From an uncultured bacterium (GTDB taxonomy: Bacteria; Babelota; Babeliae; Babelales; Vermiphilaceae), in the NCBI GenBank assembly GCA_963701085.1, contig OY969561.1, positions 416,001-480,000 of the forward strand: DNA of 64,000 nucleotides. Direction: 5' to 3'. A program made the position numbers and the translations under genes. Shown piece after piece: positions 41,572 to 63,184 of the stretch. The notes under the pieces are model-generated. The model was given only the letters and a program-made list of their open reading frames with translations, had not been told where the DNA came from and made no database searches. Every line of letters begins with the position of its first letter. Position 1 is the first letter of the stretch.

Positions 41572-42618
41572 TTAAGAAATGGTGCAATCAAACAAACGCC
41601 GCACAACATCGTTCTCTTCTTCTCTTTCATTTTCGATTTCTTTGCCAGACCTCGCGCCATAGTTCTCCAACAACAGGACAACTTTATCATATTCAGGATC
41701 TTCTTGCGCTTTATCTAACATTTTATCCAGCAACCTAATGGGTATTATGTTACCGCAATCATCAGTATAACTACCCAACTCATAATTAAGATTATAATGA
41801 TTAGGATTATCCAACAATGCTTCTAACGCTTTAATACTTTTTTTAACACATGCTCGCTCTAAAAGTTTTTCATTAAGTAAAATATTAGCATCATTAAAAT
41901 GAACAATTATTTCAGTAAAATTGGAATCATCATAAATAGCATCAATTAATACTTTCATACATTTTCCGTGATCACAATCAACTGCTATTTTAAGAGCTTT
42001 TTCTACATTTTTTCTATCCGTCTCTCTAGACTCACTCACTATATCGCTGCTTCCTACAAGACAAGCCATAAGCAGCTCTGTAGGCTTACATTGATCGTGA
42101 ACTGAATTTGTAATAGTATATGATTCCAACAATTGCCATAATTGTTCATCACCAGTATGGTCAGTAACACAACACATATCTAATACTTCATGTTGATCTT
42201 GAGAGCTATCAATAGAATAATAAAGATGATGACTTTTAGTGCAGGGCAAACTATTCTTTAAACAACCAAGAATAGTACTCTTCTTTAAAATATTTTCCAC
42301 TCCTGCATAATTCCCAACATAAGCAGCATTCAAAAGAATACGAATCATGCGTGAATGATCAACATGACAAAAATCATTGCTAAAAATATCCGGTGACTTT
42401 ATCGATCCTTTGATATACCAATTTCTGTTTGTTTTTTGAAAGTTATTTTTATTATCTGAATGTTTAAAAACTATGAACTGCGTTTCAGGTATTAATTCAG
42501 TAAAGTAACTAAACGTTACTCCTGATTTTAGAGACGGAAACCAATTCATACCAAAAGATTGCTGACTAAAGAATAAAATACTTACTACAATGCGTGCCGT
42601 TAAAAATGATATTTTCAT
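41572..42618 (-). CDS. Candidate effector: signal peptide, degenerate F-box-like motif, ankyrin-like helices, C-terminal CaaX (CTIS)
   Basis: FTELIPETQFIVF...QKTNRNW; LLNAAYVGN, LLMACLVG, LLERACVKK; ends FDCTIS-stop. Confidence 0.65.
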   Translation of the reverse strand: MKISFLTARIVVSILFFSQQSFGMNWFPSLKSGVTFSYFTELIPETQFIVFKHSDNKNNFQKTNRNWYIKGSIKSPDIFSNDFCHVDHSRMIRILLNAAYVGNYAGVENILKKSTILGCLKNSLPCTKSHHLYYSIDSSQDQHEVLDMCCVTDHTGDEQLWQLLESYTITNSVHDQCKPTELLMACLVGSSDIVSESRETDRKNVEKALKIAVDCDHGKCMKVLIDAIYDDSNFTEIIVHFNDANILLNEKLLERACVKKSIKALEALLDNPNHYNLNYELGSYTDDCGNIIPIRLLDKMLDKAQEDPEYDKVVLLLENYGARSGKEIENEREEENDVVRRLFDCTIS

Positions 42619-42798
42619 ATTATTCCATGTAATAATTATTGCAATGCACATTATGGCTTTTTATAATACCATTTTTCATAAATAATTCAATAAGACAAAT
42701 AAGCTCATTGTCTTTCATGAATACACTCAAAAAAATAGCACATAAAAACAGCGTGAAACAAGAAGATTTAGTTAACTGTCATGCAACAAGTCAAAAAG

Positions 42799-43974
42799 TT
42801 ATATTTTTAAACCAGCAGGCATTTTGACTGTTATTTCTAAAGCTTTAAAACCAAACAGTTCAATTTGGAGCTCTTTTTTTTCAATTTTTTTCAGAGCTGT
42901 CCAAGTAGCATTTACTGCAATCAGAACGCCATAACTCTCTGCATAAAGACAAGGAGACGATATTCCACAATGTGCTACTTCAAAATCTCTAAGCGCGCGT
43001 GATGTATCAGCGGATATTTCTTGAGCAAGTTTAAATTTTGTATATGCAGGATGCAGTTTTATATTTTCTGATTCAATAGTAGTACAAGCCGTTATTCCAT
43101 TAAGAATAGAAGATTCTATAGTAGCGTGTCCTTTGGCCGCATGGGTCATTTCATGATGCATCATATGTTTTATACAGTCCTGGCTTTGGTGAGCAAGACT
43201 TGGATTAAAACCAATAAAACAAGGTTTGTTTTTTTGATAGTCCCATAATTTTTGTGTTGGATTTTTATCAAGTTTATCCATAATGTCAAAATCTGTTAAT
43301 GATTTATCTACCAAGTTAACAATTGATTTGGGAGCCCTCAATTCAGCACTAGCTATTTCCCAATGTTTTTGATCAAGAAACCCAACATTAAAGGCTGTTG
43401 GATTACATTCATTTTCTTGTATTGCATCTGTTAATGCGTTTGCCAAATTTACTGGCAAATCAGGATTCCACGCTGTGGTATTCCATTGCTCCCTCAGTGT
43501 GGCAGTATCAAATTTATTTCTCGTTTCTAGCTCCAACATAAAGAGACGCCATAGTTTTGAATGAGGATCAATACCATACGCTTGTCGCAACTCATTTTGT
43601 GTATTAACTTCATGCGCAACAAGGAGTGCATTAATTTTATTAAATTGATCATGAATGTAGCATTTTGCTCTACCGATCGGTAAGGAACAAAGAATTTCGA
43701 CTATTTTATTGTGCAATAAATTTCTACTGCTTTGTTGTTGAAGATCGGCTGTTTTCAAAATTGCCAATCTTTCATAAATGGGCAACTTCTGTGCATCGCC
43801 ATTGAGAATGTCAATATTTAAAGATGGCATTAATTCATCATAAAATTGATCCAAATCGTTTAACATGGCGATGATTATATCATTTTTTGATTTTATACGT
43901 TTCATGCCAAACGCTAAAAACTGCCATGATAACAAAAATATAATACTTATACCAAGTACGGATTTATGCACCAA
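42799..43974 (-). CDS. Secreted protein with a C-terminal HExxH zinc-peptidase-like domain
   Basis: HEMTH plus downstream QEISAD; paralog of 45488-46672. Confidence 0.6.
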   Translation of the reverse strand: MVHKSVLGISIIFLLSWQFLAFGMKRIKSKNDIIIAMLNDLDQFYDELMPSLNIDILNGDAQKLPIYERLAILKTADLQQQSSRNLLHNKIVEILCSLPIGRAKCYIHDQFNKINALLVAHEVNTQNELRQAYGIDPHSKLWRLFMLELETRNKFDTATLREQWNTTAWNPDLPVNLANALTDAIQENECNPTAFNVGFLDQKHWEIASAELRAPKSIVNLVDKSLTDFDIMDKLDKNPTQKLWDYQKNKPCFIGFNPSLAHQSQDCIKHMMHHEMTHAAKGHATIESSILNGITACTTIESENIKLHPAYTKFKLAQEISADTSRALRDFEVAHCGISSPCLYAESYGVLIAVNATWTALKKIEKKELQIELFGFKALEITVKMPAGLKI

Positions 43975-44090
43975 AATCCTAGCAAGTAATAGTTTGAACT
44001 GAAACTAACAAAAGATTTTTTTCATTACAAGTAATTTATTTTTGTTTTTTTTCAATTTTTTTAAGCACATCAATCATCAGCGTTTTACTA

Positions 44091-45182
44091 TCATTGCAAG
44101 TTACAGGCCTCTGTGGATACTGAAAATGGGTGGCTGAAATCATTATAATCTTCATCTTCATCATACCCCATCTCTTGCAAAGTCTTACCACCAAGTTCTT
44201 TGTATAATGCAATATATTCTGCAATGTTAGGAATATCTGTTTGTTTGCATATTTCATCCAAAGTTGTTGTATTGATACCTCCATATGCACGACCCAAATG
44301 AACATTCTTCAAGCAACCATAAACGTTATTTTGTACCAATGCCTTAAATGCTTGTTTTTTTTGCTTCTTCATCGCCATAAATAATAATTCCAGATGAATC
44401 TCTTGATTAGGTTCTTTTTTATTTTTTAGAAACGATAATACTTTGATACAGTGTGGATTATCGTTGTACATTGCTATATAGAAACAATCAAGTATAAGCG
44501 CATATGTTGTACATAAACGATGCATTTCAACATTATCAACTTTTTCGCTCACAGAGTACTTTAATCGATCATTACTGTATTCAACTACCTTGCCATCAAC
44601 AACTACATCAAGCTCTTGTTTGACTTTATCACTATCACCGTCAAAACAGGCCATAAACAAAGGAAAAAAGACAACCCCATTTTTATGTGCATTCGATGCC
44701 AAATCCAACTCTTCAAATTTCTTAGGAGTTCCCTTTTTCCAATTATTGTTACCCAAATGCAATTTTTGAATAACAAACATATCACTAAGGCGAAAGCTCG
44801 TTTCTTCACTAATATCATAATCAAAATTACGTTGATTAGTACGATTAAGAATATTGCTCATCACCTCAATATTCTCATTCCATGCAGCATGCATCATAAC
44901 ATAAGACCAATCATCTTGACTTGGATGGAATGATTCATCATTGATAAGTTGATACATGTTAGGAGCTTGTTTGGTTCCAATTTTATGCCATGATTTACAA
45001 CTATTTTTTAATTGATTTTTTATAGATGGGCACGCAACAACAAAAATGTGGCGTCGAATATCTTCTGAGAACTTTTGTATATTAAACTGTTCTGTATTGT
45101 GAATCGTTAACATACTAAAAGATATAGTGTTACTCAGCAGTACGAGTGATAGAGCACTTATTTTTAACGCAAATGGTTGCAT
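44091..45182 (-). CDS. Candidate effector: signal peptide, F-box-like motif, ankyrin-like helices, C-terminal CaaX (CNLQ)
   Basis: IQKFSEDIRRHIFVVACPSIKNQLKNSCKSWHKI; PLFMACFDGD, LLFMAMKKQ; ends EACNLQ-stop. Confidence 0.7.
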   Translation of the reverse strand: MQPFALKISALSLVLLSNTISFSMLTIHNTEQFNIQKFSEDIRRHIFVVACPSIKNQLKNSCKSWHKIGTKQAPNMYQLINDESFHPSQDDWSYVMMHAAWNENIEVMSNILNRTNQRNFDYDISEETSFRLSDMFVIQKLHLGNNNWKKGTPKKFEELDLASNAHKNGVVFFPLFMACFDGDSDKVKQELDVVVDGKVVEYSNDRLKYSVSEKVDNVEMHRLCTTYALILDCFYIAMYNDNPHCIKVLSFLKNKKEPNQEIHLELLFMAMKKQKKQAFKALVQNNVYGCLKNVHLGRAYGGINTTTLDEICKQTDIPNIAEYIALYKELGGKTLQEMGYDEDEDYNDFSHPFSVSTEACNLQ

Positions 45183-62347: not shown

Positions 62348-62362
62348 TTAAGAACGATACTT

Positions 62363-62419
62363 ATTGGTATGTTTAAAAAAAACCTGGCGTTGTGTCAGGT
62401 TTTTTTTAAACATACCAAT
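62363..62419. terminator. Perfect 24-bp inverted repeat; bidirectional terminator
   Basis: attggtatgtttaaaaaaaacctg ... caggttttttttaaacataccaat. Confidence 0.7.
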
Positions 62420-62428
62420 GTAATTTTT

Positions 62429-63184
62429 TTAAGACTTATATCCACTAACAATCATATATGGCAGATACAACTTTATAGATTTATCTTCTGCCACAGGATA
62501 TTTTTCAAGGTAATTGTTTATAACATCATTCATAAACTCTACCTGACGCTCCTGAGGGATGATTCCATTCAATTCTGATGAATATGATGCAATCCATGCC
62601 ATAAATTTTTCTTTTGTCTTAAAAATAAATGGTTTTTTGATAATTTCACACGCAATACGATCTCCAATCCCTGCTCCTTCAAACAATTTTTTCATTGCTC
62701 TACTGCCACAAAGTTTTACTTCCTTATCGTTATCATAAAACTCTTTCCATGTATCATTCATGAAAGTTTGATAATATATATTTATATAGGGAGATTTATC
62801 ATAAGGCAACACCGCACAAAATTGACCATGTCTTTTTAATAAACGAGCGCCATTATCGAATGATTCTTGAGGTTTCTTAACAACATCCCAACACGCAAAC
62901 GTTAACACCTTATCATAACCTACTGCAGGCTTCTCCATCATATTCAGTGTATGTGTATCAATACAATAAATCTGCGCATCATAGGCCTTTTGCTGAATTA
63001 TTTTTTCACAATGAACACCAATATGCAAAATTTTCTCTTTATCAGCAAACAATAATTTTGAGACTGCGCACGTGGTCACCTTACGCTCGATCATTGATAA
63101 CTGCTTCTCATTCTCCATTCCACGCATACCACAAAACGAGAAACCAAATACTATTATTAAAAACTGTACTTTGTACGCATTCAT
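62429..63184 (-). CDS. Signal-peptide class I SAM-methyltransferase-like protein with a degenerate motif I
   Basis: KILHIGVHCE, IYCID, YDKVLTFACWDVV, LLKRHGQF, LFEGAG. Confidence 0.5.
   Translation of the reverse strand: MNAYKVQFLIIVFGFSFCGMRGMENEKQLSMIERKVTTCAVSKLLFADKEKILHIGVHCEKIIQQKAYDAQIYCIDTHTLNMMEKPAVGYDKVLTFACWDVVKKPQESFDNGARLLKRHGQFCAVLPYDKSPYINIYYQTFMNDTWKEFYDNDKEVKLCGSRAMKKLFEGAGIGDRIACEIIKKPFIFKTKEKFMAWIASYSSELNGIIPQERQVEFMNDVINNYLEKYPVAEDKSIKLYLPYMIVSGYKS

Follow-up and report, generated by a model that had tools for sequence, protein, structure and literature searches.

Methionine behind the predicted signal peptidase I site: a class-specific, lineage-limited variant of the Sec signal peptide in a Dependentiae bacterium

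The subject of this report is the residue that directly follows the predicted signal peptidase I (SPI) cleavage site (position +1) in exported proteins of an uncultured bacterium of the order Babeliales, in the phylum Dependentiae (TM6), which is known for parasitism within protist cells (passages in PMC4378268, PMC6561590 and PMC4776705). The placement rests on DnaK, whose three nearest matches, from metagenome-assembled genomes, share 90%, 90% and 74% identity with it, two of them being assigned to Babeliales, while those that follow reach 60-69%. The stretch studied, here 'the window', covers 64,000 nucleotides (C1:416001-480000) of a genome that consists of a single contig, C1, of 1,198,634 bp (37% G+C, completeness 92.6%); coordinates given without prefix are those of the window. 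We find that a whole class of leader-bearing proteins in this genome carries methionine at +1, and that this variant of the Sec signal peptide is real, strong, specific to one class and limited by lineage, the class being made up of well over a hundred fast-evolving exported proteins and not of housekeeping envelope proteins. That the rule is real, selected and class-specific we hold with high confidence; as to its meaning, the Met may flag proteins that are destined for the host cell.

Our analysis drew on 1183 open reading frames (ORFs), called crudely as the longest ORF with greedy removal of overlaps, of which 494 are of 'leader type', having an N-terminal 8-residue hydrophobic core at most 14 residues from the start codon and no further membrane-like segment. 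All cleavage sites are predicted, by a (-3,-1) heuristic on these crude calls, in which every c-region position with a small residue at -1 and a small or aliphatic one at -3 is counted, chosen blind to +1. Genome-wide, Met stands at +1 in 188 of 1253 such sites (15.0%) and is the commonest residue there, against 2.1% in the proteome and 2.2% at 5457 equally defined internal sites of the same proteins (binomial p ~5e-96); ordinary bacteria have mostly Ala at this position, and Met is rare. The first Met lies 6-10 residues behind the core in 168 of the 494 leader-type ORFs, with later positions accounting for 1-7 each. The signal is not created by the method, because the same script gives 2.2% (4/178) and 1.9% (4/216) in two related genomes. 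The initial annotation of this DNA, which had proposed the +1 Met as a possible lineage-specific export or host-mimicry signal, had allowed that its frequency might equal background, and it lies far above; the same annotation's tally of about 12 proteins in at least six families proved a small part of the whole. A strict pattern, [L/I/V/T/A]-x-[G/A/S/C]↓Met (the arrow marks the predicted cut), gathers 201 proteins, the 'Met class', where composition alone would yield ~25, and these fall into 133 BLAST families, 114 of them singletons.

Around the cut the profile (n=197, the proteins that have their first Met 5-11 residues behind the core) reads L/I/T/A/V at -3, F/H/Y at -2, G/A/S/C at -1, Met at +1, and Glu (41%) or Asp (11%) at +2; the -1 residue is one of A/G/S/C/T in 165 and the -3 residue one of L/I/V/A/T/S/C in 176. 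Across the Met class as a whole, Glu or Asp occupies +2 in 108 of 201 proteins (54%), compared with 10% after any Met.

The leaders that precede this Met have a median length of 21 residues, an n-region net charge of +1.62 (other leaders, +1.55) and a mean hydrophobicity, in the best 10-residue window, of 2.61 (other leaders, 2.69); hydrophobicity, charge and length, considered as a second difference between the classes, thus show essentially none. The genome holds one gene for SPI (LepB; C1:661030-662004 (-)), which matches TIGR02227 with 108.8 bits against a cut-off of 47. Strict Shine-Dalgarno (SD)-like motifs, looked for 4-18 bases upstream, accompany 40% of the Met-class leader starts, where G peaks at -11 to -7, and 45% of the remaining leader starts; 3% of 5688 internal Mets have one and none of the 201 +1 Mets does, so that translation from this Met, another of the outcomes that the initial annotation had set against its own proposal, is not borne out. 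In each sequence feature of Sec/SPI export that was examined (n-region, h-region, -1/-3, LepB, leader start) these leaders are, as judged from the predicted proteins, ordinary: they share with such leaders elsewhere the positive n-region, the hydrophobic core, the small -1 and small or aliphatic -3 residues, the length, the one LepB and the SD-like site at the leader start, and differ in having Met at +1 throughout a cargo class, at 15% against a background of ~2% both here and in the two related genomes. Other leader types do not fit: no twin-arginine (Tat) RR pair occurs in the n-region of any of the 201, and in place of the lipoprotein Cys at +1 there is Met, with a lipobox-like string in the first 35 residues of only 5 of the 201. 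A type IV prepilin leader was also considered and rejected, since the Met follows the hydrophobic segment and does not precede it, and the only pilin-like members are two pseudopilins (N_methyl, T2SSG) that are false calls.

Which proteins carry the Met was asked by comparing the Met class with 209 leader proteins that have no Met in the scored positions (the 'non-Met set'), the Pfam scan taking in 193 of the 201 and 196 of the 209 (the missing 8 and 13 lie across the boundaries of the 20-kb loci that were used). With a cut-off of E<=1e-8, ankyrin (17), WD40 (10) and C2H2 zinc-finger (1) proteins make up 28 of 193 in the Met class and 2 of 196 in the non-Met set (Fisher p 1.5e-7), and about three quarters of the Met class have no Pfam match at all (thresholds were mixed here, 1e-5 for the first 100 and 1e-8 for the rest). 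Further named members are PLD, a cPLA2-like phospholipase, methyltransferases, HAD and HIT proteins, a clostripain-like peptidase, a second thymidylate kinase and, by eye, F-box-like proteins. The non-Met set holds the envelope machinery (two penicillin-binding proteins, MreC, a DegP-like protease, FKBP, a TolB-like protein, BamA, BamD, Skp, TamB, Ctp, solute-binding proteins and thioredoxin) along with a collagen/S74 fibre family, glycosyltransferases with N-terminal anchors, and enzymes of lysosomal or lumen type (palmitoyl-protein thioesterase, peptidase A4, GH1 and an NPP-type phosphodiesterase). The enrichment among eukaryote-like domain proteins that the initial annotation had put up for checking is therefore present, with envelope housekeeping lacking the Met, and the data support the statement that the Met belongs to one exported class, of eukaryote-like domains and orphans. 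Because surface fibres and lumen-type secreted enzymes sit on the non-Met side, the split is not one of 'exported or not'; going by domain types, it looks rather like 'host cytosol or nucleus' versus everything else. Glycosyltransferase family 6 and a BBE-type oxidase are among the eukaryote-type, lumen- or Golgi-like enzymes that we saw with non-Met leaders or anchors.

Families are nearly all-or-none for the Met. In the ankyrin family, 20 of 21 leader-bearing members belong to the Met class and the 21st reads NNYS↓ME by eye, while one more member missed by the script (C1:740214) reads TTA↓ML; in other families the Met-class share of leader-bearing members is 10/11, 9/9, 7/7 and 5/5. Within Met families the leaders and the residues past the Met cannot be aligned, and the identity of high-scoring segment pairs in the ankyrin family averages 35%. 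(Nine adjacent ankyrin ORF fragments at C1:513502-519813, without apparent leaders, seem to be pieces of a single giant gene that stops or frameshifts have interrupted.)

Deeper conservation could be followed in the window's cPLA2-like phospholipase, ORF 55220-56851, using its best 120 database homologues, 81 of which fall in its own subfamily A. A small residue followed by Met stands at the end of 63 of the 64 visible leaders (54 scripted, 9 by eye) over 47-100% identity, with Glu or Asp at +2 in 45 of the 54 scripted cases. Sixteen of the 81 entries (P0008, P0009, P0011, P0019, P0037, P0039, P0044, P0057, P0059, P0062, P0065, P0070, P0073, P0083, P0084 and P0106) are annotated as starting at that Met. 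A metagenome scan with the alignment of these 'Met-start' phospholipases returned mostly distant relatives, and a single locus, L253, matched such an entry; in this one entry with readable DNA, an in-frame leader, ...ILSFIIQTSC↓MEPHSK, lies upstream of the annotated start. Since public calls begin at the Met while the DNA of L253 shows the leader, Met-class leaders are sometimes lost in annotation, which is a practical warning: gene finders at times place the start at the Met, and the leader then goes unseen. Subfamily B, found in the same genomes, has leaders that mostly end in A↓[V/I/F]-D, with no Met, and its copy here (C1:620539-622281 (-)) starts MKRFRVHIFCTIVACVFLIIVRGTRT↓VDY (...GTRT↓VDY), so that two cPLA2-like paralogues of one genome have opposite leader types, TAQS↓ME and GTRT↓VDY.

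A second instructive pair lies outside the window, where the thymidylate kinase gene tmk is duplicated two genes apart (C1:723590-724231 and C1:725039-725773). The cytosolic copy starts MPQLTKGILIAIEG (MPQLTKG) and the duplicate starts MNTKHLLLFAFCAAAPFTSHA↓MENHKQLNRGILIAIEG (...FTSHA↓MENHKQLNRG); given MPQL in the one and MENHKQL in the other, the Met-Glu was acquired along with the leader and does not go back to the former start codon. The Met-class leader on this second copy suggests that the parasite may export a nucleotide kinase. Taken as comparisons of sequence, these patterns indicate that the +1 Met is under purifying selection.

The same script was run on 200 kb sampled from each of eight relatives (the family and genus codes used here, f1, f2 and so on, are working labels). 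Enrichment is highest in the same genus (G005; Met at 29/204 sites, 6.3 times background), followed by G018 of family f1 (15/134) and G001 of f2 (23/221), both at 5.1 times, then G049 of f1 (17/257, 2.9 times), G040 of f5 (18/256, 2.8 times) and G027 of f1 (11/230, 2.2 times), down to the two negative controls, G047 of f4 (4/178, 1.2 times) and G041 of f10 (4/216, 0.9 times). The feature is thus lineage-specific, as had been proposed, and the rule is confined to part of the order Babeliales. It recurs on unrelated orphans, because none of the 15 Met-class ORFs of G018 has a detectable homologue among the leader proteins of the present genome. Among homologues in G005, the Met is missing in 22 of 22 that correspond to the non-Met set and present in 7 of 13 that correspond to the Met class (p 2.6e-4); this class-level table was used in place of site-by-site alignment because leader alignments were unreliable and many hits were paralogues, the best-hit alignment samples from the other relatives amounting to 0-10 aligned pairs.

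Drawing these findings together, we tentatively propose that the +1 Met is a sorting mark, read after Sec, for cargo directed to the host cytosol. On this proposal the single LepB would remove the leader just before the ATG-encoded Met, leaving a mature end that begins with Met and, in about half of the proteins, with Met-Glu or Met-Asp; this new N-terminus, Met followed by an acidic residue, would then serve as the mark of the class, and would set cargo bound for the host cytosol apart from proteins of the periplasm, envelope and surface and from secreted proteins of lumen type once Sec has been passed. A more specific version, which we regard as possible and would not press, is that Met-Glu/Asp might be the recognition element of a pathway that moves Sec-exported effectors from the periplasm or vacuole to the host cytosol in bacteria without type III, IV or VI secretion, by analogy a bacterial counterpart of the code by which Plasmodium exports proteins according to their mature N-terminus.

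As to the machinery, the genome encodes two secretins, two ATPases of type II secretion or type IV pilus kind and one prepilin peptidase, and no match to VirB4 or FHIPEP was found in this 92.6%-complete genome. In Babela massiliensis, type II secretion was the only system detected (passage in PMC4378268), and the present set fits that picture, having type II- or type IV-pilus-like parts and no type III or IV marker. Two candidate partners were set aside. A dedicated second signal peptidase finds no place, as this genome has one gene and the occurrence of two or three in some relatives does not go with the rule; such SPI paralogues, often in tandem, were seen in G005, G015 and other Babeliales genomes. 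A membrane-anchored, RimI-like GNAT (C1:912729-913286), considered as a modifier of N-termini on the model of the glutaminyl cyclase of Bacteroidetes, shows no useful correlation with the rule: anchored homologues are present in 7 of the 8 relatives, rule-less G047 included, and none was found with this query in G041. Acetyl-CoA would, besides, be missing in the periplasm. The anchor of the protein in this genome has a lipobox-like LAAC.

Several points weigh against the sorting proposal. The bond before the Met is a predicted cleavage site only, the chance share of the Met class is ~25 of 201, and at least 7 of its members are likely false calls (an epimerase, a nucleotidyl transferase, a short-chain dehydrogenase, the two pseudopilins, and ORF fragments of an ABC ATPase and of RpiB). 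Hardly any motif extends past the Met and the acidic +2 residue; Sec export is aided in general by acidic residues early in the mature protein, and the substrates of type II secretion are generally recognised in their folded form, linear tags not being known to play this part. Nor did this analysis find a partner whose occurrence follows the rule, be it a receptor, a modifying enzyme or a second peptidase. Among the relatives the rule is graded and is absent from two families (G047, G041), a spread that fits an advantage to each protein better than an all-or-none receptor. The ankyrin proteins of G041 have leaders and mostly Ala, Ser or Asn after the cut, with Met in 2 of 8 by eye, so that host-directed export, or at any rate the possession of leader-bearing ankyrins, needs no Met in this order; the ankyrin-repeat pattern used for this comparison was too strict for the 200-kb samples, finding nothing in 6 of the 8 genomes, and was usable only in G040 (15 ORFs) and G041 (8 ORFs). 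Lastly, in same-genus best-hit alignments the Met is kept in 9 of 22 against a flank identity of 33%, although leader alignments are poor and many pairs are paralogues.

The main rival to a sorting mark, to which we give a lesser and doubtful standing, is that the Met matters after delivery and gives the protein a host-side identity: an effector beginning Met-Glu or Met-Asp would resemble a freshly made cytosolic protein of the host and be acetylated or ignored by N-degron ligases, whereas the host might take the usual Ala, Ser or Gly ends left by signal peptidase for degrons. The domain types of the class (Ank, WD40, C2H2) belong to the eukaryotic cytosol and nucleus, exported copies of cytosolic enzymes have the Met where a native start would be (tmk), lumen-type enzymes and surface fibres do without it, and the graded spread suits a benefit to each protein. 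There is also precedent in Bacteroidetes, where Gln at +1 stabilises proteins (passage in PMC10653852). The finer predictions of the initial annotation, which had cited acetylation by NatB and the eukaryotic N-end rule, fare less well: the Met-Asn and Met-Gln ends that are also NatB substrates are not enriched at +2 (17/201, 8%, against 10% after any Met), Glu and Asp alone being so, and among the proteins without an acidic +2 residue, Met before a bulky hydrophobic one, an Arg/N-degron, is not avoided (28/93, 30%, against 30%). Ala, Ser, Thr, Gly and Val ends are likewise stabilising in the classical N-end rule, so a Met is not required for that purpose, and post-translational acetylation of delivered proteins is unproven.

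The remaining explanations fit the data less well than either the sorting mark or the host-side role. It is unlikely that Met is simply what LepB prefers, with [G/A/S]↓Met-Glu cut faster or more precisely and abundant or fast-folding cargo, such as repeat proteins, under stronger selection for quick release than the housekeeping proteins. A single SPI gene and the sharp -3/-1 pattern around the Met would suit this, but the same LepB must also process all of the non-Met envelope proteins, E. coli LepB in mutagenesis work takes nearly any +1 residue except Pro, and the two phospholipase subfamilies keep opposite leader types in the same genomes. A stretch of LepB in family f1 (~residues 146-185 of this genome's protein) is unaligned in other families, and G001 of family f2 shares the rule although its LepB matches only in two pieces that flank this f1-only middle stretch. 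In favour of a processing preference, lineage-specific P1' preferences are known elsewhere, the Bacteroidetes 'Q-rule' among them (passage in PMC5837995).

Still less probable is that the Met is a relic of gene birth, an old initiator left without function when leaders were added upstream of complete cytosolic ORFs. Several cytosol-type enzymes do have their domain a few residues past the Met (tmk, a flavoprotein, methyltransferases), and AT-rich upstream DNA would readily encode hydrophobic stretches. A functionless residue would not, however, be expected to persist in 63 of 64 subfamily A leaders at identities as low as 47% and in practically every ankyrin paralogue that has a leader, where leaders and flanks can no longer be aligned; Glu follows the Met in 41%, compared with 6% at position 2 of ordinary ORFs, the cut is placed exactly before the Met (small -1 in 165/197), and the Met-Glu of the exported tmk is not the old start. 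Finally, that translation always or partly begins at the Met, the upstream stretch being an ORF artefact or a second isoform, is very improbable in spite of the 16 of 81 subfamily A calls that begin there and the few clearly cytoplasmic calls in the class (the epimerase, nucleotidyl transferase and short-chain dehydrogenase), given the SD-like sites before 40% of leader starts and 0 of 201 Mets, leaders with n-, h- and c-regions that are conserved as protein among paralogues, and the in-frame leader in L253.

Among known preferences of a whole lineage for one +1 residue, the Q-rule of Bacteroidetes comes nearest; in it, Gln stands at +1 of SPI substrates and is cyclised to pyroglutamate (passages in PMC5837995 and PMC10653852). 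The two have in common a lineage-limited preference for one residue right after the SPI site, which sets the chemistry of the mature N-terminus. As described in those passages, the Q-rule extends to most SPI substrates, has a known glutaminyl cyclase, is stabilising and is said there to be no generic sorting signal, whereas here the residue is Met and a single cargo class is affected; the Q-rule pattern itself is not found in this genome, Gln accounting for 30 of the 1253 +1 residues (0.58 times background). The main text of the Q-rule paper does not contain the words 'methionine', 'Dependentiae' or 'TM6'.

For the proposed role, the nearest analogy is in Plasmodium, where the mature N-terminus decides the export of effectors into the host cell (passage in PMC10653839). 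Sorting of host-destined from resident proteins by the N-terminus left after cleavage of a leader or PEXEL (Plasmodium export element) would be the shared principle. The Plasmodium system is eukaryotic and uses the plasmepsin V protease and the PTEX translocon, while in our case an export role of the Met is inferred; no RxL motif and no PEXEL-type RxLxE/Q/D was apparent in the profile around the cut, in which no dedicated motif search was made. The mature end produced at PEXEL has, like the one predicted here, an acidic or polar second position (xE/Q/D). In diderm bacteria, residues at the mature start are likewise able to steer sorting after Sec, as in the +2 rule of the Lol system and the lipoprotein export signal of Bacteroidetes; there the signal comes after a lipidated Cys at which signal peptidase II cuts, and here no Cys stands at +1.

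Within the phylum, leader-bearing eukaryote-like proteins have been seen before: predicted signal peptides were reported for 79 of 126 ankyrin proteins in Babela massiliensis (PMC4378268) and for 44% of the coding sequences of Chromulinavorax destructans (PMC6561590). Neither paper speaks of a rule for a residue at the cleavage site; the word 'methionine' does not occur in PMC4378268, nor do 'cleavage' or 'N-terminal' in PMC6561590. We found no published description of a +1 Met rule, in the available text of the Dependentiae genome and Q-rule papers among others and leaving aside supplementary tables, which might hold lists of cleavage sites, and the rule seems to be undescribed. It would be the second example, after the Q-rule, of lineage-wide selection on the residue behind the signal peptidase site. 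Since the Dependentiae are widespread parasites of protists, the route by which their ankyrin and other eukaryote-like proteins reach the host becomes testable: a mark of one residue separates likely host-directed cargo from envelope proteins, over ~175 proteins above chance or ~15% of ORFs, and gives a handle for experiments on sorting after Sec or on the fate of bacterial N-termini in the eukaryotic cytosol.

Turning to the individual sites, all 11 that the initial annotation had cited between 41572 and 63184 are present in the translations, as is the one it had cited outside that span; the positions in its list are those of the leader start codons, and each of the Mets concerned is an ATG codon. 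The first six lie on the reverse strand. The orphan ORF 41572-42651 (-), without a Pfam match at E<=0.01, has the leader MKISFLTARIVVSILFFSQQSFG at 42550-42618 and its Met codon at 42547-42549 (QSFG↓MN, ↓MNWF; 42547-42618 in all). ORF 42799-43974 (-), also without a Pfam match, opens at a TTG with a leader that ends ...IIFLLSWQFLAFG (43903-43974 with the Met codon, 43903-43905; LAFG↓MK, ↓MKRIK), and ORF 45488-46696 (-), by eye its paralogue, has the leader MYQLIVKISVISLVLFSNTVLFG and a Met at 46601-46603 (46601-46672; VLFG↓MK, ↓MKRTR). Between them, ORF 44091-45194 (-), with a weak Ank_2 match only (E 0.003), carries MQPFALKISALSLVLLSNTISFS and a Met at 45111-45113 (45111-45182; ISFS↓ML, ↓MLTIH). 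ORF 46693-48321 (-) has MNMYRSLLKISVMLLLVGNSISFG with its Met at 48187-48189 (48187-48261; ISFG↓MI, ↓MIVRYK), and ORF 48308-49504 (-), which resembles it by eye as a paralogue, has MNMYRSFLKISVIVLAMISNAVSLG with the Met at 49427-49429 (49427-49504; VSLG↓MI, ↓MIVRYK).

On the forward strand follows a family of three, all with the Met (3/3): ORF 52937-53656 (+) with leader MIYARLFICTILMTSSLNS and Met 52994-52996 (52937-52996; SLNS↓ME, ↓MEIVKK), ORF 53759-54409 (+) with MLYARLFICTIFITSSLSS and Met 53816-53818 (53759-53818; SLSS↓ME, ↓MEIIKN), and ORF 54512-55150 (+) with MFYVFLLISTILMTNSLNS and Met 54569-54571 (54512-54571; SLNS↓ME, ↓MEIIKK). The cPLA2-like phospholipase, ORF 55220-56851 (+; PLA2_B, E 4.3e-28), has the leader MDMKHISLRITIVAACCSIALMSQTAQS with its Met at 55304-55306 (55220-55306; TAQS↓ME, ↓MENFFH). 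ORF 62429-63184 (-), with no Pfam match, has MNAYKVQFLIIVFGFSFCGMRG and Met 63116-63118 (63116-63184; GMRG↓ME, ↓MENEKQ); it reads ...SFCGMRGMENEK, and two cuts are possible, FCG↓MRG or MRG↓ME. A further site, absent from the list in the initial annotation, was found by eye in the flavoprotein-like ORF 27306-28493 (+; Pyr_redox_2, E 4e-9, domain from residue 34), whose leader MKLKFLLNILIFLVVQTSTMQSTLT ends before a Met at 27381-27383 (27306-27383; STLT↓ME, ↓MENQSQ) and which the script had placed in the non-Met set through its choice of start and scoring window.

The site cited from outside the span is that of a 4385-aa fibre protein, ORF 965-14122 (-), with a 32-residue leader and Met 14024-14026 (14024-14122; VAKA↓MA, ↓MADRS). 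It is an exception in its family, in which the Met stands in 2 of 14 leader-bearing members scored; those two are another gene and a homologous ...LPLAA↓MADD copy, ORF 965-14122 being outside the 14. The protein has collagen-like G-x-T tracts and large modules repeated several-fold. The family, which counts 23 members, often ends in a Peptidase_S74 (endosialidase chaperone) domain and is represented in the window also at 14315-17579 (+) and at the left edge, looks from its domains like surface fibres of phage-tail-fibre type.

The proteins that had been named as lacking the Met do lack it, namely the hydrolase 24161-25069, the FKBP 25756-26232 and the BNR/Asp-box pair 57036-59051 and 59361-61451 (...QVAA↓KTK). 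The members of this pair (+) stand in tandem, with N-terminal parts of ~230 residues that are near-identical by eye, and a truncated third copy lies at C1:11666-12181, which together suggest a recent duplication or gene conversion. A last curiosity of the window is a 150-aa protein at 25221-25673 (+) that consists almost entirely of AAKRKPAAKK repeats and has the basic look of histone H1; the two long ORFs antisense to it are shadows of this repeat.

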